Assembly: GCA_016196885.1 (NCBI GenBank)
Contig: JACPWU010000046.1
Coordinates: forward strand, 35,285 to 67,284
DNA: 32,000 nt
From: Chlamydiota bacterium
GTDB lineage: Bacteria; Auribacterota; JACPWU01
Direction: 5' to 3'
The notes below the pieces were generated by a model, which was not told where the DNA came from, did not search any database, and was given only the letters and a program-made list of their open reading frames with translations. This document shows, piece after piece, positions 3,349 through 27,300 of the stretch; the first letter of the stretch is position 1; each line of letters starts with the position of its first letter. The translations under genes and the position numbers were made by a program.

Positions 3349-3741
3349 TTATTTTATCTTGAGGTTTAAAATAAAATCCCTAATCTCAGAAAACATCTTG
3401 AAGGCGTTCGCCGCGTCCTTTTTATGAGGCAAACCATCAGGCAAAGAACCCGGAAGAGCATCAGGATAACGAGTCGGAATATAAAACTTATCTAGCTCAC
3501 GAAAGAAATCTTTAAACTCACTGAGGCGTGGCTCAAGTGAATGAGAAAAAGTAAAAAGCTCTAAGAGACTATGCGTCTTGTGAATAGGTCTATTGCGAAT
3601 AAACAAAAAACCCTTCAGAAGTTTTTCCACACCTTGTTGAGCATGAAAACATGTCTGATTATAGATCTCGTCCTCAAGAGCACTCTGAGCCATATGATAG
3701 TCCTCGTCCGCAAAATTGAACCACGGATTATTTACGCTCAT
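3349..3741 (-). CDS. HEPN-domain protein (toxin half of a HEPN/MNT pair)
   Basis: 130 aa. DYHMAQSALE...FHAQQGVEKLLKG and FYIPTRYPD are characteristic of the small HEPN family. It overlaps the upstream nucleotidyltransferase gene by 14 nt. Confidence 0.8.
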   Translation of the reverse strand: MSVNNPWFNFADEDYHMAQSALEDEIYNQTCFHAQQGVEKLLKGFLFIRNRPIHKTHSLLELFTFSHSLEPRLSEFKDFFRELDKFYIPTRYPDALPGSLPDGLPHKKDAANAFKMFSEIRDFILNLKIK

Positions 3742-4072
3742 AGAGGACTTTTCCCCTTTTTAGAATTTCTTCTTTAATAAAATACCTGTTTTCCTTAACC
3801 ATCTGATTCCATTCACGAGGTGTATAAACCAACGCATCCATGGAAAACTTAGGATTAGCAATAAATAGAACATCTCCAATACGATCCAAAAATCGTTTTT
3901 TGGTTTCTTTGACAATTGCAAGGTCAATATCACTGGCTTCTTTTACCTGACCACTCGCCAAAGATCCAAAAAGATAAATTTTTTCAGGATGATATTTCTG
4001 AATAATTCTTGGTAAAATTTTCTTCAGTTCGCTCTGAAGATTTTTTTTTCTCTTTAAACTCAGGACATTCAA
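3728..4072 (-). CDS. Minimal nucleotidyltransferase (MNT antitoxin half of a HEPN/MNT pair)
   Basis: 114 aa. LFGSLASGQVKEASDIDLAIV matches the GS-x(9-13)-DxD pol-beta nucleotidyltransferase signature. It is paired with the overlapping HEPN gene. Confidence 0.8.
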   Translation of the reverse strand: MNVLSLKRKKNLQSELKKILPRIIQKYHPEKIYLFGSLASGQVKEASDIDLAIVKETKKRFLDRIGDVLFIANPKFSMDALVYTPREWNQMVKENRYFIKEEILKRGKVLYERK

Positions 4073-9580: not shown

Positions 9581-9690
9581 CGATAACCTCCAGAATAGGC
9601 TAGGAATATAGCATTCACATCGGGTTAGTTTCAAATGAAAAGGAAACACGAAACAACGTAGTTCATTCCGATAGGGAGGGGAGAAACCAG

Positions 9691-9743
9691 GGACGAGGGA
9701 CGACGGAAGAAGGATGCAAAAGAATTTAAGTCGTCCCTCGTCC
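9691..9743 (-). terminator. 14-bp perfect GC-rich hairpin spanning the dedA stop codon (possible terminator/attenuator between dedA and hom)
   Basis: GGACGAGGGACGAC (9691-9704) is the exact reverse complement of GTCGTCCCTCGTCC (9730-9743), with a 25-nt loop. On the minus-strand RNA it is followed by CUGGUUUCUC. The U-tract is weak and the loop long, hence low confidence as a terminator. Confidence 0.3.
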
Positions 9744-10394
9744 ATCGTCCATCGTCCATCGTTTTTTCCTCTGCCTCACATACTCGACCGCGCCCGGCAG
9801 AATGGAGATGACAATGATGGCCAGAATCACCAGCGTGAAATTATGCTTCACATAGGAAAGATTTCCGAAAAAATATCCGCCTAAAATGAAGGCAAAAATC
9901 CAGGCAAGGCCTCCAAGGAGGTTATAACTGAGGAAACGCGTGTAACTCATTTTTCCAATCCCAGCGACAAAAGGAGCAAAGGTTCGGACAATCGGGACAA
10001 ATCGGGCCAAAATAATGGTTTTAGCCCCATACTTTTCATAGAAAGAATGCGTGCGATCTAAATATTCTTTTTTCAGGAAACGGCTTTTTTCTTGATGGAA
10101 TACCTTGGGCCCCACGATGGCGCCTATCCAATAATTAAGCGTATCCCCTGCCACTGCAGCAAAAGACAAAATCAAAAGCAAAATTTCAACTTTTAAAGAA
10201 CCTTGTGCTGCAAAAGCCCCCGCGGCAAAAAGTAAAGAATCTCCCGGAAGAATGGGTGTGACCACCAAACCGGTTTCACAAAACACAATCAAAAATAAAA
10301 TTAAATATGTCCACAAACCACAATTCTGAATCATCACACTCAAGTGCTGATCCAAATGGAGAAAAAAATCAATACCCTGATGAAGCCAACTCAT
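9726..10394 (-). CDS. DedA-family inner-membrane protein
   Basis: FCETGLVVTPILPGDSLLFAAG DedA signature about 40 aa after MSWLHQ, plus multiple hydrophobic helices. Start set at ATG 10394; the track extension to 10616 runs through an intergenic hairpin element. Confidence 0.8.
   Translation of the reverse strand: MSWLHQGIDFFLHLDQHLSVMIQNCGLWTYLILFLIVFCETGLVVTPILPGDSLLFAAGAFAAQGSLKVEILLLILSFAAVAGDTLNYWIGAIVGPKVFHQEKSRFLKKEYLDRTHSFYEKYGAKTIILARFVPIVRTFAPFVAGIGKMSYTRFLSYNLLGGLAWIFAFILGGYFFGNLSYVKHNFTLVILAIIVISILPGAVEYVRQRKKRWTMDDGRGTT
9731..9761. repeat. Tandem heptamers TCGTCCC TCGTCCA TCGTCCA TCGTCCA at the 3' end of dedA
   Basis: Read directly. Translated on the minus strand as the C-terminal tail ..WTMDDGRGTT of the DedA ORF. 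Confidence 0.9.
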
Positions 10395-12615: not shown

Positions 12616-12796
12616 TCTCCAGAATCCCTTTTTCTCACTGTTAAACCCTTACAGGTTTCGTTCAAACGGAGCAATCGTATCTGTTATCTTTCATTAATCT
12701 ATGATGTAAGTCATGAAAATGGATAAAATTTAATGCGGGATCTTTCTCAACATCAATACTTCAACGCTGTTCGTCGCATCATTTCACGACGGCGTC

Positions 12797-12980
12797 TAGC
12801 CCGCATTTCTCATCACATTTCTGCTGCGAGCGCCGATTCCGCCTCGTCTCTCCGTGCAGACTCGGTCGGCCACGCTCAACATACTGTAAAGTATGCCTCG
12901 CATGGCCTCGGTCGTCTTCCTCGCATCCAAAGCGGACTCAGGCGTTCCTCGCGACGAAATCTGATGAGAAATGCGGGCTA
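12797..12980. repeat. 184-nt imperfect palindrome with 19-bp perfect termini (6S-like sRNA or MITE-like element)
   Basis: TAGCCCGCATTTCTCATCA (12797-12815) is the exact reverse complement of 12962-12980. Hand folding gives a long closing stem, an unpaired pyrimidine-rich internal loop on both arms (about 12843-12858 and 12915-12931) and a terminal stem-loop (loop 12885-12890). Confidence 0.75.
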
Positions 12981-13068
12981 ATCGTCTCTTGAGTCACGGC
13001 TTCTTCGGGAAGGATTTGTCTTAATTGGGTAAGAGCGTCACGGTCCATACCGGTACCCGAATTTCTTT

Positions 13069-15231
13069 TTATTGAACTTGGATAGAAACTTTTGAACAAG
13101 CCCCGCTTTCATCATTGACACGGATATCGTGAAATCCCACTCTGGGTGTCCAGAATAGAGATTCTTCCGAATGGGCCTTTCCGATAAACGTTCCATCCAC
13201 AAACCACCATCGCCAAGAGTGAGGTTCTCCCCCATTTGATTTGAGCGTTATTTTTTGATGCGCTAGAGATGCGTGATCATCTATGTAGAATTCCTGATTG
13301 TGCGCAATAGAAGCAATGACCAGACTTCTCTCCCCTTTTTCTAATTCTAAAGATTTTGTTTTTTCATCCGGCACTGAGGGCCATTCTTGAATTTTAGGAT
13401 GAAGGTTGTTTAGCAATCGAAGCGCAAGAGGCGCAGCCAAAGTCTGACCAACCAATTCGTGAGATCCCTTTCCGGAGGTATTTCCCAGCCATACCACAAG
13501 GGTAAATTGAGGTGTGACCACGGCACACCAAGCATCTTTATGATCACTGCTGGTTCCCGTTTTCCAGGCTGGATGAAAGAGAGCGGCTTCAGGACATATT
13601 CTTTCTGTTCTCTTTGAATCGCTTAAAACATTCAGAACTTGCCAGCAGGCTTTGGAAGAAAGAATAGATTTTTTTTCAAGGGCGAATAAGTCGCGCTTAT
13701 AACCCCTCCTACTCCCCTCAAGATTTTCTAGTCCCTGTGGGATTAAAAAAAAGGGGAGAGTCTCCCCTCTTAGTGTAAGAGGGGTTGGGGGAGTTACATC
13801 ATTTTTAGATTCCTTTGAAGTGTGTATAAACTTTACTGGAACATGAAAGCCCCCTCGCCCCAGAGTCGCATAAGCCTCTGCCATTTCAAGAATGGATGCC
13901 TCTGCCCCACCAATAGCCAAAGACAATCCATATTTTTCAGGAGCCTGAGACAATTTTTTAAAGCCTGCTCCCTCCAGGATACCCAGGACACGAGGGATTC
14001 CCACTTTAGACAACAACATCATCGCAGGGATGTTCCGGCTCTCTCGCAAAGCCTCTCCTGCAGTGATAGGACCTCGAAACATTTCATCATAATTCTGAGG
14101 CGTATAACCTGTCCAAGCAATGGGCTGGTCTTTCAAAAGCGTGCTGGGCGTACACAAGCCCATTTCAAAACTCGCAGCATAGATAAAGGGTTTAAGCGTT
14201 GAACCTGTGGAGTAAGAGCGTCTAGACAAATCCAAAACATTTTTCTCTTTTGTGAGGCTGATCGAGGCAAGACATTCTGCCGTTTGAGTATTTAAAAGGA
14301 CAATCGCCAACGTATTAATATCAGGCGAATGAACCTGGTTGAATACCTCTCTCGCTGTCAGAGTGAGTTGCTCTTGAAAATTTGAATCCAATGTTGTCGT
14401 GATTTTCCCTTGCCGAAACCATTCCTTTAAAGTCAGCAAAAAAGGAAGCGCTGAGTCATGAGCTGCATGGGGCAAGGAATGCCACACCGCTTGAACGGGT
14501 TCGGATAACGCCCTTTGATATTCTTTTTCTGAAATCATTTTTTGATTCCACATTTTGAGAAGCACATGATTGCGCCTCTTGAAGGCACGCTCTGGAAACA
14601 AATCCGGACGATAACGGTTCGGACTTTGGGGTAGACCCGCCAAAAGAGCTGCTTGGTTTAAGGAAAGATCGCGGCAGGAAAGATCAAAATACCTCCAACT
14701 CGCTGCGCCAACACCCATAAGGTTTCCGCCCATGGGACAGCGATTTAAATACTCGAGAAGAATTTCTTTTTTACTCATCTTTTTTTCTAACTGATAAGCC
14801 CGAATGGCTTCGATCCATTTAGACTTAAAGGTTCGAGATTTAGGATGACGAAGATGCTCGACTTGCATGGTGAGAGTACTGGCGCCTCGAACAATTTTTA
14901 AAGCTTTCACATCCTGCCAAAGGGCTGCTGCAACGCCCAGCCAGTCAACGCCTGAATGCCCATAAAAACGACGATCTTCAATCGCCACAATCGCTTGATA
15001 AAGATAGGGACTTATTTCTTTTTCTTTTAAGGGGAAATACCATTCGTCATTTTCTGAAACAAAGGCAGCCAGCGCTTTTCCATGAGCATCTTCAATCCAC
15101 AAGCTAGGAGGAGGTGCAACATGAGGAGGAAGTGGCACATAAGCAACAGCCAGAAGAAAAGAAAAATAGCCTGATAATAAAAGGCTCGTTATGGATGTTA
15201 AAAAAATAATCAGTCGATGATAATGTTTCAT
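13069..15231 (-). CDS. pbpC: Penicillin-binding protein 1C (bifunctional glycosyltransferase/transpeptidase)
   Basis: 720 aa. N-terminal signal anchor, GT51 motif EDRRFYGHSGVD, transpeptidase motifs STLK (SxxK), SRN and KTGTS, a C-terminal PBP1C-type beta domain, and adjacency to an alpha-2-macroglobulin gene as in E. coli yfhM-pbpC. Confidence 0.88.
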   Translation of the reverse strand: MKHYHRLIIFLTSITSLLLSGYFSFLLAVAYVPLPPHVAPPPSLWIEDAHGKALAAFVSENDEWYFPLKEKEISPYLYQAIVAIEDRRFYGHSGVDWLGVAAALWQDVKALKIVRGASTLTMQVEHLRHPKSRTFKSKWIEAIRAYQLEKKMSKKEILLEYLNRCPMGGNLMGVGAASWRYFDLSCRDLSLNQAALLAGLPQSPNRYRPDLFPERAFKRRNHVLLKMWNQKMISEKEYQRALSEPVQAVWHSLPHAAHDSALPFLLTLKEWFRQGKITTTLDSNFQEQLTLTAREVFNQVHSPDINTLAIVLLNTQTAECLASISLTKEKNVLDLSRRSYSTGSTLKPFIYAASFEMGLCTPSTLLKDQPIAWTGYTPQNYDEMFRGPITAGEALRESRNIPAMMLLSKVGIPRVLGILEGAGFKKLSQAPEKYGLSLAIGGAEASILEMAEAYATLGRGGFHVPVKFIHTSKESKNDVTPPTPLTLRGETLPFFLIPQGLENLEGSRRGYKRDLFALEKKSILSSKACWQVLNVLSDSKRTERICPEAALFHPAWKTGTSSDHKDAWCAVVTPQFTLVVWLGNTSGKGSHELVGQTLAAPLALRLLNNLHPKIQEWPSVPDEKTKSLELEKGERSLVIASIAHNQEFYIDDHASLAHQKITLKSNGGEPHSWRWWFVDGTFIGKAHSEESLFWTPRVGFHDIRVNDESGACSKVSIQVQ
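13701..13795. repeat. GC-rich palindromic element lying inside the pbpC reading frame
   Basis: AACCCCTCCTACTCCCCTCA ... CCCCTCTTAGTGTAAGAGGGGTTGGGGGAGTT. It contains the hairpin CCCCTCTTA/TAAGAGGGG and an A8 run, and resembles the elements at 15251 and 17056. It is translated as ..TPPTPLTLRGETLPFFLIPQGLENLEGSRRG.. Boundaries are approximate. Confidence 0.65.
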
Positions 15232-15250
15232 ATTTTAAAGAAGCAATAGC

Positions 15251-15332
15251 ATTCCCCTCCCTTGATGGGAGGGGTAGGGGAGGGTGAGTTCAAATTCCCC
15301 CTCCCTAACCCTCCCCACAAGGGGGAGGGAAT
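15251..15332. repeat. GC-rich palindromic element, intergenic copy (a2m-pbpC spacer)
   Basis: ATTCCCCTCCCTTGATGGGAGGGGTAGGGGAGGGTGAGTTCAAATTCCCCCTCCCTAACCCTCCCCACAAGGGGGAGGGAAT. The termini are near-inverted repeats with internal CCCCTCCC/GGGAGGGG hairpins. Confidence 0.85.
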
Positions 15333-15345
15333 TAATATAGATTTC

Positions 15346-18300
15346 TCAATTCTTCGAAGAAATCGTCAGCGTCTCTCCTGCCCCAAAAAGACTGTTGATC
15401 GAAATGTCATACATACACTGCGCTCGAACAGGGGGAATCGTGAAGGTTCCAGGGGTAATCGCCCTTACAAGATACGTGTAGGTTGCCCGGCCTTTGGACA
15501 TTTTTCCATAAAGAACCAGACGATCATCTCGAATATCTACTCGACTGTCGACAAAAGCAGAAACTGCGTCAGGATTTGACAGCTGAGCTGTTGTATTGAA
15601 TCTGGGGTTTTCAATCTCGAACCCGGCTGGTAGAAGATCTTCAATCACAAGATTGTCATAAGTAATCGTCGTTTCCAAATCGAGCTCTACCTGAATCAAG
15701 TCTCCGCTCTTGATCTCGTTCATAGATAAAGGCTTTCCGTTTTGATCCAGGTATTTTCTGCGAATGGAAATCCCATGATCCTCATTTTTGGGAGCTTCTT
15801 TGGATACACCTGTTACTGTCCATGAAATATATCCTTTTGCCTGTTCAGACCCTTGAATTTTCACAAGAAAATTTTTTCCGATCACGTCTTGATTTAAAGA
15901 AGTCCAGGAAAGAGCCTCTCCTCCTTTTGTCTCTAGGATTTTTTCAGAATCAGACCCTAGCTCGCAAGAGGCAAAAGGCTCACCCATATCCACTTTTTCT
16001 AAATATTGTCCCAGCGCCATCAGAGCAAAGGCATAGTCCTGGGTACTCCCCCATTTTTTATCATCCCCTGCTTGTGCAATTTCCTGAATCAGTTTTGGAA
16101 TGGCCGCATTCTCTGGGTCTAATTCCATCAAGGCTTGAGCCAAAATAGACTGGTCACGAATTGGAGATCCAATGTTGCCTTCAAGCTCTCGACTCTGCCG
16201 AGGCCGAGCGAAATCCTGAGGAATGAGATCCATCGCAAGATCGCGGCGCCCCGCGTAAAACCAGGCCAAGGCCAGGTAAAAGCGCGTGGAAGGATAAATC
16301 TCATGTTCTGATACAACAGGATTTTTGAGCAACTCTTCGAGACGAGTCATGATGGAACGTTCTGGTTTTCCAGCCTTGGCCAAGACAAAACAGGCATAAG
16401 CCTGAATTTCTAAAGTATCGGGATTGTCACTTGTTTCCTTCATTAACTTTTGCAAATAAAGAAAAAGCCTGTCCCGAAAATCTAGTGGGATCTCATAACC
16501 TAAACTTTCAGCCTCCACCAGAAAATGTGCTGCGTAAACACTGGCCCAAGGCCATATCTCACGGTACCCTGGCCACATTGCGATCCCGCCATCAAGCGTT
16601 TGCATGCCAATGAGTCGCGTAATCGTGGTATCTACTCTTTGAGTTACATATTTTTTCTCGAATAAATCCGGAAAAAATTTCTCCCCCACTTTTGTAAGCC
16701 CTATCAGAGGGAAAGCCGTACTGAGGGTCTGCTCTGCGCATCCATGCGGATATTCATTGAGATAATTCAGGGCGTTCACAATGTTAAACGTCGAAAAAGG
16801 GAAAACGCGTATATTAAGCTGCGCCGTTTGGGAAACCCATTTTTCAGGAATTTTGATTTCCATGGGATGACCCGGCGTCACAGTCGCATCACTTCCAACA
16901 GATGTGATGGGGTAAGGGGGACGCACAGGTAACTCTAATTCTTGCGTGTATTTTTCTCCATTTAACTCAGCTTCAATGTAAAGATGCGCCGTTCCCATTG
17001 CTTCACCTGCTTCTAAAGGAATGGACAAAGTGACTTGCCCTCCATTTTCCATCAATATTCCCCTCCCTAGATGGGAGGGGTTAGGGGAGGGTGGATTCAA
17101 ATCTCCCCCCTCCCTAACCCTCCCCATGGTTTCCGTCTCTCGACTCCAACCACTCTCTCGTCCACCCGCAAGCGGGTACCCGGACTCGGTCGCAAGGGGG
17201 AGGGAACTTTTCGAATTCTTCTCTGAAGAGTTTGTGAAACGAAGCACTGCTTTTTCATCTTTCAACTCAATAGAAAGATTTGCACTTCCCTTTTGCCCCG
17301 TATGATTGAAAAGGGTGATGGGCATTTCAAAATGATCTTTCATGGCTACAAATCGGGGAAGAGTTGTCTGAAACATCAGAGGGGATCTCACAATCATAGG
17401 CTGGTCCATGGCTCCGAAAAGATTGCCTGCATGAGCAATCACCATCACCCGCAGGCTTCCTGAAAACTCTGGAAGGCTAAAATGGGCGACGACTTTTCCT
17501 TTTGAATTGGAATGAAGAATTTTAGAAACTAAAGCAACATTTTGGATTCGCTGGGGAGAAACCGGTGACAAATGTCTTGGATTATATCCGCTGCCGTCTC
17601 CACCGACCGCACTTTTTGGATTTAAAGCAGGAATTTCAGGAAAAAGCTCGCTGTAAAGGTCCGACCCTGAAACTCCCAGTCCTCTGGTTTGATGAAAAAA
17701 CTCAAAAGGATCCGGCGTCGAAAAATCCGTTAATTGCAAAATTCCCTCATCCACCAAAGCCAATGTCACAGAGGCATTGCAAACGGGCTCACCTGTTGGA
17801 TTTCTCACTTCGACCGCTATCCTCACCTTTGTTTTTGGGCGTGCTTCCTTCGGGCCATCTACCTTAAGCAAAAGTTTTTCATCCTCATTCTCCACACGCA
17901 ATCGGGTCACGCCAAAGGCCCGATGCATTTTCCAAGGGGCATCAGACTTCACAGGCTGAATCACTGTGGCCGACACATAAGCATTCGGACGAAACTCTTC
18001 AGTCATATCGATAGGAACCGTTACATACGACTCCGTCATCTCTTGCACTTGATGAAAAATCACATGATCCGTTTCGAGGGTCAAAAGCAATGTCCCCGGA
18101 AAAGGACTGCGAATTACGACTTCTGTCTTCTCCCCAACACGCACAGGAGAAATTTTGATTTTAAGTTCATCCGGTCTTTCTCGGCTGATAGAGTCTTCCC
18201 ATCCTTCTCCCTCACTGACGTAAAATGACTCTGATGTCAGGGTTCCCATTTTGGGATCTCTGATAGAGACAACATACGATCCCCCGCCCGAAGGTGTGAC

Positions 18301-21063
18301 AGCAACCTTCCCCTTCCCTTCTTTTAAGAGAATGGAGACAGACTGAACCTCTTCTAAAACACGAACGGAATCATACGAATAACTTCTATCCCGATACGTC
18401 AAAACATTGTTCCAAGTTTCTCTAAAAACTTTCACCTCAATTGAATCCAAAACCTTTGATATTTCTCCCTGACCTGTGACCGCAGCCACGTCAAAATCAG
18501 AAGGAGATCCTGGTGCCATCCTCCTAGATACGGGAGAACGAAGCGCCAAATAATAGGAAGGACCATCAATGAACAATTGCTCTGTCGAGCTCACCGCCCG
18601 CCCCCCCATTTCTTGGACACTGCCTGTAACCGTCAAAAGCCAAGGGCCCGCATAAGAAAATGTTTTGTCCTTCATTTTAGAAAGAGAAGCCAAATCAAGT
18701 TCCCATTTTCCCTTGCCCTGTTCATCCAGCTTAATGGGAGGCAATTCAATCGATTGACCTTCAGGAAGAGGCACCCCAAATGTCTTTAAAGTTTCTGCGC
18801 TGTCTCCAAAGGTCCAACCTTTCCATTTTTTCGAACGAAAAGAAGTGGGATCCAAACGTCCCGTCAAAGTCGCATCGCCATTTTTGGCCGGCTGGCCAAA
18901 AAGATAATCCCCTTTGATTTTAGCCTGAAGGGATTTATCTGAAAGTTTGTAACGCCCGCGTTCAGATGGCCTTAATTTAAGAGCCATTTTCATTCGATTG
19001 GGAACAAATTCCTCTACCAAAAATGAAGCCAATCCAAATTCTTCTTTCTCTTCCTTTCCAGATTTAGGAAGTCCCACGCAAACAGACCACCTCCCCGTCG
19101 GAATATCCTTTGGCAACTTCATAGAAAGATGAGACATGCCATTGGAATCCATTTTGACCATACGTCCCTTCCACTCTCGACCCTCAGGTCTGTAAAATTG
19201 CCATTTCACTGGAAAACTTTCAGGAACGGTAAGCTCTGAGCCTCGAACAATCGCCCAAAGATGAATTTTTTCTCCAGGACGGTAAGCCCCTCTCTCTGAA
19301 TAGACAAAAGCTTCATACCCCTTTCTTAAATAAGGCGTTCCGGAAACATCAAAATTAGAATAAGAAAGCTGGCTTGACCTTAAATCAAGCCAGGTGAGAC
19401 CTGTTTTTGAGGAATCAGAGGATGACAACTCTGCAACCACAATAGCAGGCCTCTCATCCTCCTTTATTTCTATTTTTTCTATTCTTGCCACCCCCTTTGA
19501 ATCCGTAAGCGCCTCTCCTAAAAGTTGATTTTTATCCGAAAAAAGTTTAATTCTAACTTTTTCCATCGGTTTTGCAGTCGCCAAAGAAATTGCCCACACA
19601 AAAATGCCGCCTGAGAACTGCTTTGCAACAAGGCCCACATCAGACAAGGTTACAACCGTAGAAGCCGATAAATAATAGTAGGCATCGTAAGTTCTATTTT
19701 CCTGATCTGGTTTTATTTTAATTTCATAAACCCCATCTCGAGCGATATCCTTGGTGAGCAATTCATCCAAAGACAGGCGTATGTCTTGAATTTTATTTTT
19801 CTCCACATTTAACTTCAAAGATTTTTCAGCAACAACCTGACTCAATTGACTCAAGCCATACCACCTGCTTTCATAGACCGTATTTCTCCACGCCACAATG
19901 TTGTTTTCATACATTCTGGTCACAATCACCTTCACATTTTCAATATTCACCGCATGGGCCAGCACCGCCCGGTTTCCTTGGGAACCTAAATAGCCTTGTT
20001 CCTGTTCAAACCACAGTTGAGGTTCTCGATCATCAATAAAAACGCTAAAAAGATCCGAACGTGGATAAATCTTTTGGGAATTTGAAACAGCAGGTTTGGA
20101 TATTTTTAAAGCATATCTTTGCCCTGGGATGAAATCTCCTTCTAAACTTGCCCCAAACCATTCCTTCATGCATGTGAAAGGCACCTGAGGCTCAACCGAA
20201 AGCACTTCTTTAAGAAGCTCCGTATCCATGTTGTTGTTCGAGTAAAGACGAATCTTGATTTTTCCCCGTGAAGAAGAATAGGGTTCAACTCTCGTGATCA
20301 TGAGTTGATTGCTTAAGACAAGCGTTGCTTCATAAGGAGCAGCCAGGCCCAAAGGACCACTCACCCCGCAAAGCCCCGCATCCAAATGAACCATCACCTG
20401 AGGAAAGGTCTCATGGTCTAGCTGTAGAAGAGGCGTTGGCTCTGTTATGATTCTGATGACATTCCCCGTACTTTCCCCATACAAATGGAAAGAGATGGCT
20501 TGATGATCCAAAGATTCCATTTTTAAACATTTCAGGGCTTCGGTAGATAAAACATTGTTGTTAAACTCGATCTCCAGCATAAATTGATCTCTTTCGTCAA
20601 AAGCCGCTTGGCGTATGGAGATCACTTCAAGAGGCGCCGTCTTCACAGTCACCGAAAAAGAACTGTTTGAACATCCCTCTTTTGAAAGAAGAGTTTTTTC
20701 TGGCAAAGTAAATGTAAAAGGAGTGGTCTTTGGAAGGTCTATTTCAGGTGTAAAAGCGAGCTTTCTGGGACCCAGCCAATCCCAATGCCCCTGGACGAGA
20801 TAAGGAGACTGAGAGGGTGTTTGAATCGTAATGGGAAGATGAGCAATCTCTGGAAAGTTTCGGTATTTTTCATCAATATCCAGATTAAATTCCCAAACCA
20901 GTATCGGTCGAGCCCCCACAACTGCATCTACCCCCGGACTAAATTTTATGACCTGCAAAAGATTTTCATTTTTAAACTGATTGAAATGAATATAACCCAA
21001 CCAAGCCCCGATATTTGCTACCGCAAAACAAGAAACGGTCATCCAAAATTTTTTGCTCAACAT
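15346..21063 (-). CDS. yfhM: Bacterial alpha-2-macroglobulin family protein with intact thioester motif
   Basis: About 1,905 aa of repeated beta-sandwich (MG-like) sequence. YPHGCAEQT thioester motif at 16729-16740, an N-terminal hydrophobic anchor, and upstream partnership with pbpC. Start set at ATG 21063 (GGAG 6 nt upstream) rather than the GTG at 21075. Confidence 0.9.
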   Translation of the reverse strand: MLSKKFWMTVSCFAVANIGAWLGYIHFNQFKNENLLQVIKFSPGVDAVVGARPILVWEFNLDIDEKYRNFPEIAHLPITIQTPSQSPYLVQGHWDWLGPRKLAFTPEIDLPKTTPFTFTLPEKTLLSKEGCSNSSFSVTVKTAPLEVISIRQAAFDERDQFMLEIEFNNNVLSTEALKCLKMESLDHQAISFHLYGESTGNVIRIITEPTPLLQLDHETFPQVMVHLDAGLCGVSGPLGLAAPYEATLVLSNQLMITRVEPYSSSRGKIKIRLYSNNNMDTELLKEVLSVEPQVPFTCMKEWFGASLEGDFIPGQRYALKISKPAVSNSQKIYPRSDLFSVFIDDREPQLWFEQEQGYLGSQGNRAVLAHAVNIENVKVIVTRMYENNIVAWRNTVYESRWYGLSQLSQVVAEKSLKLNVEKNKIQDIRLSLDELLTKDIARDGVYEIKIKPDQENRTYDAYYYLSASTVVTLSDVGLVAKQFSGGIFVWAISLATAKPMEKVRIKLFSDKNQLLGEALTDSKGVARIEKIEIKEDERPAIVVAELSSSDSSKTGLTWLDLRSSQLSYSNFDVSGTPYLRKGYEAFVYSERGAYRPGEKIHLWAIVRGSELTVPESFPVKWQFYRPEGREWKGRMVKMDSNGMSHLSMKLPKDIPTGRWSVCVGLPKSGKEEKEEFGLASFLVEEFVPNRMKMALKLRPSERGRYKLSDKSLQAKIKGDYLFGQPAKNGDATLTGRLDPTSFRSKKWKGWTFGDSAETLKTFGVPLPEGQSIELPPIKLDEQGKGKWELDLASLSKMKDKTFSYAGPWLLTVTGSVQEMGGRAVSSTEQLFIDGPSYYLALRSPVSRRMAPGSPSDFDVAAVTGQGEISKVLDSIEVKVFRETWNNVLTYRDRSYSYDSVRVLEEVQSVSILLKEGKGKVAVTPSGGGSYVVSIRDPKMGTLTSESFYVSEGEGWEDSISRERPDELKIKISPVRVGEKTEVVIRSPFPGTLLLTLETDHVIFHQVQEMTESYVTVPIDMTEEFRPNAYVSATVIQPVKSDAPWKMHRAFGVTRLRVENEDEKLLLKVDGPKEARPKTKVRIAVEVRNPTGEPVCNASVTLALVDEGILQLTDFSTPDPFEFFHQTRGLGVSGSDLYSELFPEIPALNPKSAVGGDGSGYNPRHLSPVSPQRIQNVALVSKILHSNSKGKVVAHFSLPEFSGSLRVMVIAHAGNLFGAMDQPMIVRSPLMFQTTLPRFVAMKDHFEMPITLFNHTGQKGSANLSIELKDEKAVLRFTNSSEKNSKSSLPLATESGYPLAGGRESGWSRETETMGRVREGGDLNPPSPNPSHLGRGILMENGGQVTLSIPLEAGEAMGTAHLYIEAELNGEKYTQELELPVRPPYPITSVGSDATVTPGHPMEIKIPEKWVSQTAQLNIRVFPFSTFNIVNALNYLNEYPHGCAEQTLSTAFPLIGLTKVGEKFFPDLFEKKYVTQRVDTTITRLIGMQTLDGGIAMWPGYREIWPWASVYAAHFLVEAESLGYEIPLDFRDRLFLYLQKLMKETSDNPDTLEIQAYACFVLAKAGKPERSIMTRLEELLKNPVVSEHEIYPSTRFYLALAWFYAGRRDLAMDLIPQDFARPRQSRELEGNIGSPIRDQSILAQALMELDPENAAIPKLIQEIAQAGDDKKWGSTQDYAFALMALGQYLEKVDMGEPFASCELGSDSEKILETKGGEALSWTSLNQDVIGKNFLVKIQGSEQAKGYISWTVTGVSKEAPKNEDHGISIRRKYLDQNGKPLSMNEIKSGDLIQVELDLETTITYDNLVIEDLLPAGFEIENPRFNTTAQLSNPDAVSAFVDSRVDIRDDRLVLYGKMSKGRATYTYLVRAITPGTFTIPPVRAQCMYDISINSLFGAGETLTISSKN
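17056..17206. repeat. Second copy of the 15251 element, carrying a nested ~66-nt insert, inside the a2m reading frame
   Basis: 17056-17125 and 17192-17206 align almost base for base with 15251-15332. 17126-17191 is extra and contains the hairpin ACCCGCAAGCGGGT. Translated in frame as ..PLAGGRESGWSRETETMGRVREGGDLNPPSPNPSHLGRGI.. Confidence 0.85.
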
Positions 21064-21212
21064 AGATGTCTCCACTCGTCTGTAATAAAAATTTGTTTCG
21101 AAAATTTTTCATAAAATTTATGGAAATAAATCTGAACGGTTTGAGAAAGAGGGTCAATGAAAAATGAAAAATAATTTCAGACATGAATTAACTTATTGCA
21201 CAGGAGGAAGTA

Positions 21213-21333: not shown

Positions 21334-24300
21334 CTACATCTGCGTCTGAGTCAAATCCATCATAGCTTTGAGAGAGGCGAGGCGTTTGGTGGACCGAAGT
21401 TGAAGATGCCTTTTTTGATTCATCTCATCCATGGCAGGGGGATCTATCGACCGAAGGTCGTCACTTATTTTTTGTCCATGCTGGGCTAAAATGTCGAGAA
21501 TCACAGCCAGCTTGGCTTGGTCTAACCTTCCCTCCACAACCCAAGCCATGACACTATTCAACTCATCTCCCAAGCGTTCTTTCAAAGAAGAGGACACAAA
21601 CCATATTTCTTCTAAACTCTGACCCGTCATCTCCTGTCCAAAGCGCTTTTTCGCCTCTGTCTGAATCATCTGAAGGTAATTTTGAGGTGAAAGACGTGTC
21701 TTTCCTTCCCGGATGACAAAAACCTGAACATTCTTGAGATTTGGAGAAAGGCTTAAGGCCTGTCGGGCTGACTTCTCTAACACTTCATCACTTTCTTTAA
21801 CATTTTCATTCACAAAAACAGGAATCAATCCCTTGAAATCTTCTTCTTTTCCGGCCTCTCTCAAATCATTTAGATATTGATTCAAGGCTGTCGGATCCAC
21901 ATGCATTTGACCCTGATCCGTCACAGAAATTCCGACAATATCCTGATCCATGATAGAAACTTGATGGGCGGGAAGATGAGAGATTTGCTCTCGATGTTGC
22001 GTTTTATAAACCCGCCCCATCTCAACCCAAAGAGAACTGCAAACCACTTCTACTTCATGGGTAGAGGGATTGATCATCCTGACCCGTGCAATCACATGAG
22101 CCCTTTCACTTGAACCAGGCTCTTCAGGCAGATTTAAATCCAAAGTTGCCGGATTCTGACCCTCCCAAGATTCAAGGGCTGTTAATAAGTAGGAAAGAAA
22201 TTCTTCGTCTAAATTGGCGTTTACGATATGAATCCTAGAGGATCTTGATGTTAGGACAAGATCCCTCGTTACTCTCGGGATGACACTTTCAGTAGAAGGA
22301 TCTTCCCACATCGCCGCCAGTAAATCATCCAGATAAAGACTTTCAGTATAGTCTGAAAATCCTTCATACTGAGGAATGTGTCTCGGAAGTTCTCCTTTTC
22401 CATTCATGATAAAATTCGCTATTTTTTCAAGCTCTTGATCCTTTAGATCTAATCCGCGAACAGCTCCTGCCAATTGCAAAAGATCCCTAAAAATAGCTGA
22501 TTTTGCCTGCCGCCTTCCTTCTTGATCCACTTTCTCTCCCTTCTCCATGGCCCCAATCAATTTTAATACAGCTTGCCTCAAAGCTCCCACTCTCACATTT
22601 TCTCGAGTGATCAATCGAACCACTCTATCTAATGCCTTCTCAAAAGCCTCATCTCGATCTAGCTCGTTTGTTTGACCCATCAAGAGTCGCAACTGATTGA
22701 GAAGAAGCCGGCGAGCATATTCATCTACCCCCCTCTTAGGGTCAAGTCTTTCCTTGACTACATCTCTACCCAGCACCGTCGCCACCCACTCCTCCCATCC
22801 CAGCTGAACAGGCCTTCCCTCTTCCATGAGCCATTTGAGTTCACAAATATTTTTGTCTGCATCATAAGCTATAAGGTCTGGATACTTTTCGGATAATTGA
22901 ATCAGTTCTTGAATTTCATTTTCATAATCTTCTTGTGCCAACTTCATCCTTCTCTGTTCCTGAAGAGCTTTTTCGTGAAGGTCTTCCAAGAAGGCATATT
23001 CTTTTTCTGTCATGATCTGACGCGCTTCTACATTCCGGCCTATTAAATAATCTTCCAATCTTTGAATAGATTGAGGAATGAGAGAAACACCCTCCACATC
23101 TTCCATAAGTCTTTTTCGCCCTCGGGCTTGGTTTTTTGCCTGGATGGCCTCTCTCAAAGTATAAAAATCGTGATTCTGATTTTGATAAAGTTGTTTCATC
23201 TCTCTCATCCATTTTCTAAGCCCATGAAAAAACAGGGTAAATTTCTTTTTGGATTGACTAGATTTAACACCCATCAGAGTCTCCCTATCGCCCATCACAA
23301 CCAATCGATCTATCGAGCGACTCAAAGCCACATTCAAACGATTCAAATTTCGAATATGACCCACCTCTCCAGCAGAATTGCTCCTGACAAAGCTGTAGAT
23401 CACCACGTGGTTTTCCCTGCCTTGATAGCTATCTACCGTTGAAACTTGCTCACGAACAAGCCCCTCTGCTCGATCTGGATTCATATCTCTTTTCTGAGTT
23501 AAATAACTCTTTAAAAGATCTCTTATCAAATCCACTTGTGCAGCGTAACCGGTTAAAATGGTGATCTGTTCAGGTCTATAACCCGAAAGCAGGGCACGCT
23601 GATATTCCCGAAGAGCTTGTTCAGCCTCTTTCAGATTTTTATAACTTTTCCCTTCTTTCTCTTCATTGGGATGATTTCCTTCCATAGGAACATCTACCAT
23701 TCTCAATGTATCCCTTTCCATCATTCTCCAATACTTAGGAACCATCAACCTTCTATAAAACAATAAACCCACTAAAACTGTAATCGCAGGATGAGATCGA
23801 TAATTTCTCGCCAAAAATACTTGTGGGTATCCTCGATCCCATCTTCGACCCATGCCACTTCTCTTCATCAGTCTTAAAAATTCTTTTCCATGACCCGCCA
23901 TCCATTGACTTTCAAAATAAGGCTGCAACTGTCGATGATCCCCTGCTAGAACAACTTTCTCCCGAGCCTTGGCCACAGCCAGCAAAGTCTCCGCCTCATT
24001 CACAGTCCCGGCTTCTTCAACAATCACAACATCAAAATCATTTCGATAAGTCTCCGGCACAAGACCCATGGAGTGAATCGTCGCACCCACGACATAACCG
24101 TTCCCGTTTAAATTCCAACGGTGTTCACATATCCTAGCTCCTTCTCTATCATATTGATTAAAATTCTGACGATCTCGAACCCAATACTTTCTCAACTTTT
24201 CAAGAATTCTCTCATCTCCTCCACCATCTACCCCTTTGTTATACACACGCATGATGGGAAGTTCTATTTTGTCTAAACGGGCCAACAAATGATCCACAGC

Positions 24301-27300
24301 ACGATTGGTCCTGCTCACGACCATCACCCTTTTACCCTGCTGAACAAACTGTTGAACGATCCCGACCAATGTGGATGTCTTTCCACTGCCCGCCCCTCCC
24401 TGAATCAGAATGACATTGGCTTTAGGATTCAGGGAAACGTCTTGCGCATGGGATTGAAATGGATCGTTCTCAGTATTTCTGTCCATGCCAGAGTGAGCAT
24501 CCTCAATATCCAATCTAGATATAGGCGTTGGTTCTCTCAAACCTAAAAACTCTTTCACGGCATCCGTTGCAGTACCCTCTTCTATTTTCTGCTTCAAATC
24601 CATTAAAGCGATAGCCATCGCCCTTTGAAGTTCAGGACGCATCCCATTTTTACTCGCTCTTCCATCTGTTTTAAGTTTGGCAGTTCCTGCTATCAGCATG
24701 TCTAATTCATCTAAGACTTCTTTTCTTGTCCGTGTCTTAAGAAGAAAACCCTTTTCACCTGGAAGTTGCATAGAGGCAACTTCCGCTTCCCCATTAAATT
24801 CTCCATCTAAAACAGTTATGGACGGAAGTGTAACATTCCATTTCAGGGCGGCTACCCACAAAGGGCGGTTGGGCATCATCCCATTCAAGAGAGACCATAC
24901 ATCATTCCCAAAGCCCCCAGCTTCGCGTTCCCGAAGCGCCACTTGGACCTGCTCAACATTTGAATAACCCGAAGAGAGTCTTGGTTGAAAACCAATAGCG
25001 TTCCCCTTAAGAACCAGACGATGAAATCGAAAAATGGTTTTTCGATGAAAACGTTTTCTCGTCTCATAAATCCAACCTGCCAAGCTATCATCATAAAATC
25101 GTCTTATCTCAACAGGACCTTGACCCGGGCCTGTAGGCAAAACAACCCTCTTTTCCATTTTCTTTTTGAGTTCGCCTCGACCCGTTTCTTCAGTCCACGT
25201 CACGACAACTCTTCCAAATTTATCTGCCTTAAGGCTCCACGGACCTTCGAAAGGTTTCACAGCATTTTTCTCTAAACCTTTTTGACCCATTCTGACATGT
25301 TGAACAATTCTTTCCTCACTCGGATCAAACGGTTTTAAATCCAAATGTTTTTTATCTTCATTCCAGACCATTCTTAAGAAATTGATAAACTCTTCTCCTG
25401 CCACCACACGCCTCGTCTTGTAAACCCATCCCCATTCTGGATCAAAAGTACGACTCAATTTTGCAACCGATGGACATTCTTTTTTTGTTCCGGTAGCAGC
25501 CGAAACATGATGTTCCTTTTTTTGTTCGTCGACCCAATAAAAAGAAATATCTCCTCGAGCATCCGTGGGCACTTCCCAATCTTCAAAAGGCTCTACCGCC
25601 TTGCGTTTCTGGGCTTTGGTTTTTGACATTCTTAGATGAGCAACGATTTGTTCTCGAATAGGATCTTCAATCGGTTCAAACACCCAATGTCCCTTATCTT
25701 CTTCCCATTTCAACCGAGATTGACAAATAATGGTTTTAGATACTCCCTCTTCCGCCACCCTTCTTCGAGTTTCATAAATCCATTCTTTTCTCATGGAATC
25801 AAAAAACCGCCGAACCTCGGCTTCTCCTTCCTCTATAGAACCTGTAGACAATAACGCACTGTTTTTGCCCCAGCCATACGTCAGTTTGCCATTGCCAATC
25901 GTTCCTTGTTTCCACCATCCCAATTCCCTTACTGCATCTGACTTCTGAGCCTCACTCTTTCCCATACTCAGATGAGCCACAACTTCTCGGCGCATTCTAC
26001 CCAGCACCGTTCTATCTAAATTTTTAAACGTCCAAGAGTTATGACTCTCATCCCACTCCAACCTGGACTCGCTGATGATAAATCGGCGACGCCCATTCTC
26101 ATGAACTTCTCTACGCGTTCGATAGACCCAACCCCATTCACGCGTGTAAAAACGCATCACATCTACCCAGACTTTTCCACTGTTCTTACTTCCACTTGTG
26201 GACAAATACCTCTGTTTTCTGACGCCATTGACCGTCACGCTAAACAACAACTGACCGTCATCATTCGTTTCTTGACACCATCTGACGGATTGCGTCCCTT
26301 CCAATTCCAAATGCGTTAACTGATAAACTGTCTCGGCCTTACCCTCTTCAGAACTCAACTCCTTTGCCCGAAGCCACTGATAAACCCTCTGCGCAAAACC
26401 TAACCCTTCTTCTTGCAACATTGTTCTAAACATCGTGAGTTCTTCCACCGTTATCTTCAACTCTTGAAGGACATATTCAATATCCTCTTCCAAAAGCATG
26501 GCCTCTTCTTCTATCGTGTTACCTACACCCGACTCATGCCTGAGTTCATGCCTCAAACCGAGCTTCAATAATTTCAACCGGCAAGCAGGAGAAATTCTTG
26601 AGTTAAAAACTTGACCATTGATGCCAATAAAACCGTTCGTTTGATGATCTTCAAAAAGGTGAGTAGAACTTGAAAGGAGGGATAGAATAATTTCATTACC
26701 TTGCGGAGGTGAATGATCAAACTGCTCAGCCAAATATTCTTTCAAAAACTTTTCAAAATCATTTGAACCCTCAAAACCAAAAGCTGTAAACCTAGACAAA
26801 ATCTCTTTATCTATCCACACCGCTTTACCTGCAATCTCACCCAAAGATTTTGACTGGGCTTTAACTTGGCCTTTTATCTGCTGAATATCTTTTCCTTCTA
26901 TCCCCTGCCCCCACCACATCATTGGGCCCTCATTTTTGAGCTTTAGCCCTTCCATGTTGGCAATATTCGACGGAGCAGGTCCTGACACTCCAAATTTGCT
27001 TTCCCATTCTCTACTCAGAGGATCCACAAACAAATATTGAAACAAAGGATGTTGACCCTTATCTATAACATCTCCAACATCATGAGTTATTTTTTCCTGA
27101 CTGAGTCCTCTTCCTGAATAAAGTAGACCCAGGAAAAATACTTTATCATTGTCATTTAGCATTCTTTTTAAAACACGCTCGTTTTCAAATGGTGGGGCAT
27201 GTCCCAGGGCAGACTCCAGATGAAGGGCAAAAATCCACTCATCAATGTATATGCCTCTCATATACACATCTATGGTGTTCCAAATCATCCGGCGAAGATT

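Follow-up and report, generated by a model that had tools for sequence, protein, structure and literature searches.

Rickettsia palindromic elements (RPEs; Ogata et al. 2000) are, as outlined in two other papers (PMC10969869, PMC3733652), palindromes of about 100-150 nt that are located between genes as well as in frame within unrelated genes. REP sequences, which number tens to hundreds per genome, are mostly extragenic. Copies within genes have nevertheless been described, among them dimers that code for 20-30 aa, and the host is often a gene for DNA repair (Di Nocera et al. 2013, PMC3733652). In-frame fusions with host ORFs were also described for MITEs, namely for ERIC/RU, BOX, Correia and cyanobacterial elements (PMC10969869, PMC2759123). 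As intragenic insertions of REPs and MITEs are already documented, the insert in an alpha-2-macroglobulin gene (a2m) reported here represents another case of a known phenomenon.

The locus belongs to an environmental MAG labelled Chlamydiota. We consider it quite probable that a non-autonomous palindromic repeat inserted twice in its a2m-pbpC operon, and that the copy within a2m is a tolerated in-frame loop. If so, an RPE-like process is at work in a Chlamydiota-labelled lineage, far from Rickettsia, and the a2m locus would add an environmental MAG to the instances of 'selfish DNA inside protein-coding genes' that are best known from Rickettsia. The host gene product is a large extracytoplasmic defence protein, and the locus combines a clean empty site with structural context. 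As a single-locus finding this is modest, since neither a novel mechanism nor a novel role of a2m is indicated.

Two copies of a palindromic element in the a2m-pbpC operon

The analysed stretch of DNA (the window) comprises 32,000 nt, and all positions given below refer to it. The a2m gene occupies 15346..21063 on the minus strand and encodes 1905 aa in the NCBI record; the mechanically called ORF (15346-21075, minus strand) begins with GTG at 21075 and gives 1909 aa. Its downstream operon partner pbpC (PBP1C; 13069..15231, minus strand; Pfam Transgly, Transpeptidase and BiPBP_C) follows on the same strand 114 nt past a2m. An 82-nt REPIN-like element (15251..15332, no strand assigned) takes up most of this spacer, which extends from the a2m stop codon to the start codon of pbpC. 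The closest orthologous locus has no spacer, its a2m and pbpC overlapping by 4 nt.

The second copy is an in-frame insert in a2m (17057..17206, minus strand) of 150 nt or about 50 codons, with edges placed to within about 1 nt. It is composed of i) the left 70 nt of the element (17057..17126), containing hairpin 1, hairpin 2 and the 5' arm of hairpin 3, ii) an extra 66 nt (22 codons; 17127..17192) in the loop of hairpin 3, which include ACCCGCAAGCGGGT and have no counterpart in the intergenic copy, and iii) the right terminal arm, CAAGGGGGAGGGAA (17193..17206), which equals 15318-15331 at 14 of 14 positions. MAFFT paired 17057-17126 with 15251-15317 and 17193-17206 with 15318-15331. When the a2m element was compared with the window by BLAST, its left 70 nt matched 15251-15317 with 90% identity (70 columns, 3 gap positions, E = 1e-13). 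With the 66 nt excised, the two copies, which have the same orientation, aligned over 84 columns with 91.7% identity (3 gap positions, E = 2e-26). The first-pass annotation, which had recognized a copy of the palindromic intergenic repeat inside a2m, was thus borne out; its coordinates were right to within 1-2 nt, the insert starting at 17057 instead of 17056 and the extra piece spanning 17127-17192. Both copies, 82 and 150 nt in size, end in the terminal inverted repeats ATTCCCCTCCC...GGGAGGGAAT. A count of copies, which had been suggested as a check, was made for 42 kb of the contig and yielded just these two, 1.8 kb apart, one of them in a CDS.

Folding and classification of the element

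The 82-nt copy folded with -58.4 kcal/mol (z = -4.5 relative to dinucleotide-shuffled sequences), either into a single long hairpin or into three, with a central spacer of 12-13 nt. The 150-nt copy reached -77.6 kcal/mol on the mRNA strand (z = -3.0). The element is a REPIN- or MITE-like inverted doublet of CCCTCCC/GGGAGGG hairpins. Its layout agrees with that of REPs and REPINs (Bertels & Rainey 2011, PMC3116915), in which an inverted pair of short, imperfect palindromes encloses a short spacer and can fold into one long hairpin. Unlike them, however, it has no GTAG beside the stem and no cognate RAYT gene within 42 kb. Neither copy carries a GTAG or CGTC tag at the REP end, and assignment to the classical GTAG REPs was rejected for lack of the tag. 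A single GTAG occurs by chance in the intergenic copy, between G-blocks (GGGGTAGGGG), while GTTAG is found in the a2m copy and in the other arm; in other genomes, related elements have CC, TT, CT or TTA as the linker. The G-block is a near, not an exact, fit to the GGGGWSAS motif of the TIRs that flank TIRYT genes.

As for MITEs, the element resembles them in its small size, its terminal inverted repeats, the lack of coding capacity and the in-frame fusion with a host ORF, and differs from them in showing no target-site duplication and in having no known parent IS. The flanks of the two copies (AATAGC|...|TAATAT and CATCAAT|...|CTTTTCG) share no direct repeat. Among the genes in 42 kb of the contig, none encodes a transposase, Y1_Tnp domain proteins included. 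At gathering thresholds, Rfam had no match in the window. No terminator-like site was called at either copy, and a terminator role of the elements was rejected on these grounds.

Similarly to RPEs, the element is a palindromic repeat of about 100-150 nt that is present both between genes and in frame within an ORF, where the encoded peptide is, according to the structure model, compatible with the fold of the host protein. The host, too, may be of an intracellular lineage, going by its NCBI label (Chlamydiae/Chlamydiota), which is not that of Rickettsia or another member of Rickettsiales. NCBI gives this label to a UvrB encoded nearby on the same contig. On the other hand, the CGTC tag reported for RPEs of the RPE-4/6 type is absent, and only one intragenic copy is known here as opposed to dozens in R. 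conorii. The parallel with RPEs that had been drawn from the sequence is therefore a fair analogy for the process and does not imply membership in the family.

Occurrence of the element core in other genomes

A scan of genome contigs revealed the 18-mer core of the element in many phyla among the matches listed. The partner hairpin arm accompanied it in 108 of these 125 matches, and the full inverted doublet was present in 29 of the 125. In several instances the core was located in frame and between Pfam domains, specifically in genes for UvrB, E2 acyltransferase, ComEC and Mfd; UvrB and Mfd make this family, like the intragenic REPs, one that is hosted by DNA-repair genes. Searching the text of the literature with the repeat sequences returned only unrelated primer or aptamer matches, and the accession led to no publication.

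These data bear on the possibility that the element is immobile here, the insert being a lineage-specific loop of a2m that local duplication or gene conversion then carried into the spacer, or vice versa. Although just two copies in the same orientation were present in 42 kb, 1.8 kb from each other, and neither a transposase gene (in 42 kb) nor a target-site duplication was visible, such an origin is unlikely in view of the same doublet architecture and the same 18-mer core in many unrelated genomes. Moreover, the GC content of the insert is 62%, compared with 44% for the remainder of a2m. The assembly graph points in the same direction: a Logan contig from run SRR12113387, an exact match to window positions 15304-17086, ends 29-30 nt inside each of the two elements, as is expected when a k = 31 graph meets a repeat, so that the 31-mers in question would have further contexts in the sample. 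From these contig breaks, together with the copies in other genomes, it can be inferred that the element is repetitive in the host genome.

We thus favour the insertion of a mobile, non-autonomous repeat. According to this model, the repeat would have inserted twice within 1.8 kb, once between genes and once inside a2m. Mobilisation would have taken place in trans, the most plausible agent being a HUH tyrosine transposase of the RAYT/TIRYT type that works on single-stranded hairpins.

The insert in the a2m protein

The a2m product contains the Pfam domains bMG3, MG2, bMG5, bMG6, A2M_BRD, A2M and bMG10. It conforms to the ECAM/YfhM-type A2M proteins (4U48, 5A42, 4RTD) in the order of its MG domains, the bait-region domain, the CxEQ thioester in the TED, the C-terminal MG motifs (RDDR and MY) and the operon with pbpC. 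Unlike the E. coli and Salmonella proteins, it is longer by about 250-290 residues and bears a 50-residue repeat-derived loop in domain MG9.

The minus-strand ORF reads through the insert uninterrupted, as had been proposed, with SSLPLATESGYPLAGGRESGWSRETETMGRVREGGDLNPPSPNPSHLGRGI at aa 1290-1340 (1909-aa numbering). The roughly 50 extra codons, at 62% GC, specify a stretch in which Gly, Ser, Pro and Arg are abundant, in line with the Gly/Pro/Arg-rich loop anticipated in the first-pass annotation. Alignment with orthologues (35-55% identity), suggested as a way to find the empty site, showed the segment to be missing in 51 of 51 and the site to be a loop of variable length. The insert is also absent from the solved Salmonella and E. 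coli proteins (SaA2M/ECAM), and the interval that spans 74 residues here comprises 19 in Salmonella A2M. Among 1.84 billion representative proteins, the 51-aa insert peptide had no HMMER match, and a word-index search gave no candidate; a concatenated query of four other open-frame translations likewise matched nothing in protein collections. A homologous non-repetitive segment in orthologues had been named beforehand as the observation that would contradict an insertion; since neither the 51 orthologues nor the 1.84 billion proteins contained one, this objection falls away.

In an AlphaFold2 model (mean pLDDT 83.9), whose best Foldseek matches, 4U48 and 5A42, identify the fold as bacterial A2M, confidence dropped below 50 only in the bait region and in the insert. 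The insert, with a pLDDT of about 30 over aa 1296-1337, is predicted to be a disordered loop in MG9, with a short strand on either side (fragment residues 332-334 and 381-383). The only other long segment of low pLDDT is the predicted disordered bait region (17542..17652, minus strand; aa 1142-1178, fragment residues 183-219), which adjoins the C-terminal edge of A2M_BRD (aa 977-1115) and lies 110-150 residues upstream of the insert. As the used frame contains no stop codon over about 150 nt, the insert would simply be translated, giving a disordered loop of about 50 residues at a length-variable site of MG9. The first few residues encoded by the element (SLPLA) would substitute for a short beta-strand. 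We infer that the insert is translated and near-neutral, and it is probably a tolerated passenger. In this sense the locus is a natural experiment on the amount of disordered sequence that can be accommodated by an MG domain in a thioester protein.

Alternatively, the insert could have been co-opted, either as a second protease-accessible, bait-like loop or, together with the intergenic copy, through an RNA hairpin that adjusts a2m expression in relation to that of pbpC. The insert loop resembles the bait region in its length and its predicted disorder, and MG9 is part of the moving TED arm (PMC4498604), which closes on the protease. The hairpins of the element are very stable, and REP hairpins in operons have been proposed (PMC3733652) to stabilise mRNA or to affect transcription termination. 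Co-option is nevertheless quite unlikely. There is no conservation by which to judge it, as the insert occurs in none of the 51 orthologues and its peptide is unique among the 1.84 billion representative proteins; no terminator-like site accompanies the elements; and similar repeats reside in many unrelated proteins, which argues for tolerated passengers.

Integrity of the gene and of the assembly

The tolerated passenger would reside in a gene that still appears to be functional. The thioester motif GCAEQ, which the first-pass annotation had correctly reported as intact, is found 104 codons past the insert (about 105 had been estimated) and spans 16729..16743 on the minus strand rather than 16729-16740. 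Its C, E and Q are invariant columns in a 46-sequence alignment, and all other residues that are invariant in this alignment, including the RDDR motif and MY, were retained as well. With every family-invariant residue kept, the a2m product is most likely still a thioester protease trap, judging from its sequence. As the 150-nt copy is open in two of its six frames, the open frame could be fortuitous in a gene already inactivated or decaying, and a 150-nt hairpin within the CDS could impede expression; decay of a2m is, however, very unlikely considering the intact 1905-aa ORF with its thioester motif and invariant residues, and a model that is confident outside the insert.

The identical 1905-aa protein is encoded by two NCBI contigs (67,210 and 67,284 bp), and the Logan contig spans the junctions 17056/17057 and 15332/15333, which confirms two of the four junctions independently. 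In addition, the distance between the 66-nt piece and unique a2m sequence is only 14 nt, and any k-mer of at least 21 nt should therefore cover both. An assembly artefact, in which the repeat was misthreaded into the a2m contig or the 66 nt came from another copy of the element, is thus hardly credible, even though the source is a short-read MAG and the Logan assembly breaks in both elements, where repeats evidently trouble assembly, as the second contig, the two crossed junctions, the preserved frame and the continuation of the same MG9 domain on both flanks all weaken this objection, which had been raised at the outset.

The nested segment and its hairpin module

Cyanobacterial small dispersed repeats (SDRs) are reportedly units of 21-27 nt with a hairpin core and conserved flanks, which are dispersed in genomes and nest in larger repeats. 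A comparable unit was detected within the 66 nt that separate the arms of hairpin 3 in the a2m copy. The recurring part of this segment is confined to its 3' third and consists of a hairpin module of about 21-27 nt, CACCCGCAAGCGGGTACCCGG; its 22-nt form, CCACCCGCAAGCGGGTACCCGG (17162..17183), encodes SGYPLAGG on the gene strand. Part of the extra sequence in the third hairpin's loop is itself a widely scattered mini-repeat of 21-22 nt. More than 120 exact matches of the module, with unrelated flanks, were present in metagenome contigs among the matches listed. Across 17 aligned copies of a repeat of about 100 nt, the module was present or missing at three positions, i.e. it also nests within a larger repeat. 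The remaining 36-40 nt or so of the 66-nt piece had no other copy in the fetched module loci or in viral contigs. In 20 loci carrying the 22-mer, Rfam identified one tRNA and nothing else.

The earlier view of the extra segment as a second nested element with its own hairpin therefore holds for the widespread module, which does contain a hairpin of 21-22 nt, and not for the segment as a whole: its other 36-40 nt lack a second copy, and the 66-nt piece folded alone showed no significant structure (z = -1.4). Module variants with altered inner stems exist; evidence of covariation among them is weak, as the filter demanded complementary ends. Only some copies of the module were located in hairpin loops. 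Targeting of hairpin loops by the module was rejected, the flanking stems averaging 4.75 bp as compared with 4.70 bp in controls.

It is possible, although doubtful, that the cross-phylum CCCTCCC/GGGAGGG family and the 21-nt (7-codon) module are general, so far undescribed generators of in-frame peptide insertions, in which case the a2m insert would be a composite of both and an RPE-like process would operate far outside Rickettsia. Being in frame in many genes, both repeat families are a potential source of error in gene calling, domain annotation and assembly.

The 21-22-nt module and the SDRs have in common their size, the hairpin core with conserved flanks, the occurrence in unrelated contexts and the nesting, while we know of no sequence similarity between them. 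In contrast to SDRs, the module is hosted by high-GC bacteria of soil, peat and wetland and by this MAG, not by cyanobacteria. Its 21 nt correspond to seven codons and, again unlike SDRs, it is found inside coding sequences, being in frame in genes for UbiD, peptidase S49, a phage portal protein and a PQQ-propeller protein.

Two copies of one repeat in the a2m-pbpC operon

The ORF at 15346-21075 (minus strand; 1909 aa with a GTG start codon; the public record uses the ATG at 21063, for 1905 aa) contains the Pfam domains bMG3, MG2, bMG5, bMG6, A2M_BRD, A2M and bMG10 of a bacterial alpha-2-macroglobulin. The ORF 114 nt downstream (13069-15231, minus strand, 720 aa) contains the Transgly, Transpeptidase and BiPBP_C domains of PBP1C, and the two form a classical a2m-pbpC pair. 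Most of the spacer between them is occupied by an 82-nt palindromic element (15251-15332). A second copy, in the same orientation, lies inside a2m (17057-17126 and 17193-17206) and is split by an additional 66-nt piece (17127-17192). The copies are 90% identical over 70 columns (BLAST, E = 1e-13), or 91.7% identical over 84 columns when the 66-nt piece is left out (E = 2e-26). The a2m frame meets no stop codon in the intragenic copy and encodes SSLPLATESGYPLAGGRESGWSRETETMGRVREGGDLNPPSPNPSHLGRGI there; of the six possible frames, two are open in this copy. The insert has a GC content of 62% versus 44% for the gene, and is enriched in Gly, Ser, Pro and Arg. One repeat family has thus been inserted twice in one operon, with the frame open and the host gene intact. 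The alignment, the E value and the stop-free frame bear out the first-pass annotation, which had proposed a palindromic intergenic repeat in frame within a2m and an intact thioester motif behind it: GCAEQ is unbroken at 16729-16743, 104 codons downstream of the insert.

The element is composed of alternating blocks CCCCTCCC and GGGAGGGG, which can pair as three separate hairpins or as a single long one. Folding energies are -58.4 kcal/mol (z = -4.5) for the 82-nt copy and -77.6 kcal/mol (z = -3.0) for the 150-nt copy on the mRNA strand; the 66-nt piece folded alone showed no significant structure (z = -1.4). G-rich blocks at 15267-15284 and 17073-17092 contain a canonical four-tract G-quadruplex motif, GGGAGGGGT(T)AGGGGAGGG, and a complementary C-rich motif lies on the same strand at 15297-15316 and 17106-17125. 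Judged from these motifs, the element could alternate between hairpin and G4/i-motif forms. As direct repeats (15251-17206), the copies also flank the 3' 1.7 kb of a2m, encoding the thioester domain, CUB and the C-terminal MG domain, and recombination between them would lead to loss of this part.

Empty sites and position of the insert in the protein

The a2m protein was aligned with its 51 best homologues (35-55% identical). None of the 51 had residues in the approximately 43 columns opened by the insert, which revealed the empty site at a position where orthologues already vary in length by a few residues. The interval around the insert comprises 74 residues here and 19 aa in Salmonella A2M (residues 1052-1071), and the 51-aa insert peptide had no HMMER match among 1.84 billion representative proteins. 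As the segment was absent from all three comparisons, we found no lineage with a homologous non-repetitive segment, the observation that had been named beforehand as evidence against an insertion. L121, the orthologous locus nearest to this one (55% identity), has no spacer, its a2m and pbpC genes overlapping by 4 nt; by this comparison, the intergenic copy likewise looks like an insertion.

An AlphaFold2 model of aa 960-1909, based on an alignment of 46 sequences, had a mean pLDDT of 83.9 and a pTM of 0.75, with Salmonella A2M (4U48) and E. coli ECAM (5A42) as top structural matches. Only two long stretches were of low confidence, namely the bait region (fragment residues 183-219, aa 1142-1178) and the insert loop (fragment residues 337-378, aa 1296-1337). 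The latter is bordered by short strands at fragment residues 332-334 (SLP, encoded by the element) and 381-383, and lies approximately 110-150 residues past the bait region and 105 residues ahead of the thioester. The beta-sandwich that carries it is followed immediately by the CUB and TED domains and therefore corresponds to MG9 in bacterial numbering, a part of the 'TED arm' that is mobile on activation (PMC4498604). All invariant family columns are retained (thioester C, E and Q; DDR of the RDDR motif; MY). Together with the low pLDDT, this indicates that the insert is a predicted disordered loop of approximately 42-50 residues and that the protease trap is otherwise intact.

Relatives of the element in other genomes

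The 18-mer CCCTCCCTAACCCTCCCC, scanned against one genome per species, was found in at least 119 stretches; among the matches listed, hosts included Alphaproteobacteria, Planctomycetota, Chloroflexota, Melainabacteria, CPR and other groups. The complementary arm GGGGAGGG followed within 30 nt in 108 of the 125 matches listed, and in 29 of these 125 an inverted G-block was present 11-58 nt upstream, the inverted-doublet layout seen in the window. In this layout the element resembles REPINs, i.e. two inverted REPs forming one long hairpin (PMC3116915). It has neither the GTAG nor the CGTC tag of classical REPs (PMC3733652). Related copies in other genomes include GGGGAGAG, a sequence consistent with the GGGGWSAS motif that has been described for TIRs on either side of RAYT-like 'TIRYT' genes (PMC3733652), which provides a lead.

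Four other genes contain the CCCTCCCTAACCCTCCCC hairpin in frame and flanked on each side by Pfam domains: UvrB of Magasanikbacteria (locus L014, 2371), an E2 acyltransferase of Bradyrhizobiaceae (L063, 3031, minus strand), ComEC of Gallionellaceae (L049, 2590) and Mfd (L113, 1887, minus strand). Loci L109, L102, L114, L013 and L043 are further plausible candidates. Hosts such as UvrB and Mfd echo published intragenic REPs, which are frequent in repair genes and as dimers encode 20-30 residues (PMC3733652); a recent review describes in-frame MITE fusions as 'not unusual' and RPEs as their most extreme form (PMC10969869). The a2m insert, correctly interpreted from the start, belongs to this documented class of intragenic REP, MITE and RPE insertions, and what is new in it is the host lineage and the host protein.

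The nested 66-nt piece

The 22-mer CCACCCGCAAGCGGGTACCCGG from the 66-nt piece occurred in at least 120 metagenomic stretches, those listed being soil, peat and wetland contigs (mean 60% GC) with unrelated flanks; three viral contigs also carried it. Only 22-27 nt of the piece are common to the matches listed, and its first 36 nt or so had no relative in the fetched loci or viral contigs. The proposal of a second, nested element therefore holds for one third of the 66 nt, a widely recurring module, the remainder being at most a candidate. Hairpin loops are not the usual site of the module; only some copies, that in a2m among them, lie in one.

The conserved core CACCCGCAAGCGGGTACCCGG is 21 nt, exactly seven codons (e.g. 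HPQAGTR or PPASGYP). It was in frame within the matched Pfam domain of UbiD-family (L146, 4065), lambda-type phage portal (L126, 5449) and PQQ beta-propeller (L226, 3001) genes, and just upstream of the matched domain in peptidase S49 (SppA; L166, 2498) and APH-like kinase (L163, 607) genes. Both repeat types, the CCCTCCCTAACCCTCCCC hairpin and the 21-nt module, are thus found in frame in other genes, and any real novelty may lie in these two widely distributed families. L126 is on the same contig as the viral locus L246.

The module is also central to a recurrent, MITE-like repeat of approximately 100 nt (...TGGGGCTCGCGTCGCCCCCTCC...GCTCGCCGTGCTCGCTAGATAGATT) in wetland and soil metagenomes (L143, L180, L189, L201, L213, L216, L224, L225 and others), some copies having extra modules elsewhere. 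Among 17 copies of this family, extra modules occupied three distinct positions, and this is evidence for polymorphic insertion. Two further recurrent module contexts look like structured RNAs or elements; Rfam gave no match for the repeat or the other contexts. The module is perhaps most analogous to the small dispersed repeats of cyanobacteria, reportedly described by Elhai in 2008 (cited in PMC3116915).

Origin of the insert

We propose that an HUH tyrosine transposase may mobilise the repeat in trans as a single-stranded hairpin, which is consistent with the REPIN-like form and with the lack of target-site duplications at both copies. Selection would have filtered for an insertion that was a multiple of three, stop-free and in a tolerant loop, and the insert would be translated as a passenger loop. 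No tyrosine-transposase gene was seen within 42 kb of contig.

Local duplication of the element without mobility would agree with the presence of only these two copies in the same 42 kb. A Logan contig of run SRR12113387 (1,783 bp), which exactly matches 15304-17086, bears on this. It covers the whole unique sequence separating the two elements and extends 29 nt into the intergenic and 30 nt into the intragenic copy; the Logan assembly breaks precisely at both copies. A k = 31 graph stops k-1 bases into a repeat when the next k-mer has several contexts, and from this we infer that more copies exist in the sample. We do not favour duplication alone, nor exaptation of the insert as a second bait or RNA regulator, to which its low pLDDT, shared with the bait region, and its strong mRNA fold might appeal; the loop has no counterpart in the 51 homologues. 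Pseudogenisation of a2m, to which a 150-nt hairpin within the CDS might point, is not favoured either, the frame and invariant residues being preserved.

An assembly artefact is unlikely: the same 1905-aa product is present on two NCBI contigs (67,210 and 67,284 bp), and the Logan contig, source of a 568-aa fragment in the a2m protein cluster, independently confirms junctions 15332/15333 and 17056/17057, with 17206/17207 not among them; unique a2m sequence is only 14 repeat bases away from the 66-nt piece.

Other features of the window

NCBI contig JACOUD010000031.1 (assembly GCA_016178005.1) contains the window, with a UvrB gene just beyond it on the same contig that NCBI assigns to a 'Chlamydiae/Chlamydiota bacterium' MAG. 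Despite this label, the MAG encodes a2m and a class-A-type PBP1C that includes a transglycosylase domain (13069-21063). Classical chlamydiae are not known to have such PBPs, so that the MAG represents a deep environmental lineage or else is loosely labelled.

Between a sulfite-reductase-like gene and pbpC, a second palindromic element, unrelated to the first, forms a near-perfect hairpin of approximately 190 nt (12785-12992; RNA MFE -111.8 kcal/mol, z = -10.3). The public record places an 82-aa ORF over it; the ORF had no Pfam match and the hairpin no Rfam match. The spacer after a VTT-domain gene (9684-9760) contains a 14-bp stem, GGGACGAGGGACGAC...GTCGTCCCTCGTCC, followed by three CGTCCAT units. 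A giant ORF is present at 21334-32000 (3561 aa in the record). Its C-terminal part is an AAA_11/AAA_12 (Upf1-like) helicase region, and within the ORF two direct repeats of 87 nt, 83% identical, are located at 29186 and 29957. HEPN/nucleotidyltransferase and PIN toxin-antitoxin-like pairs are located at 193-612 and 3349-4072.
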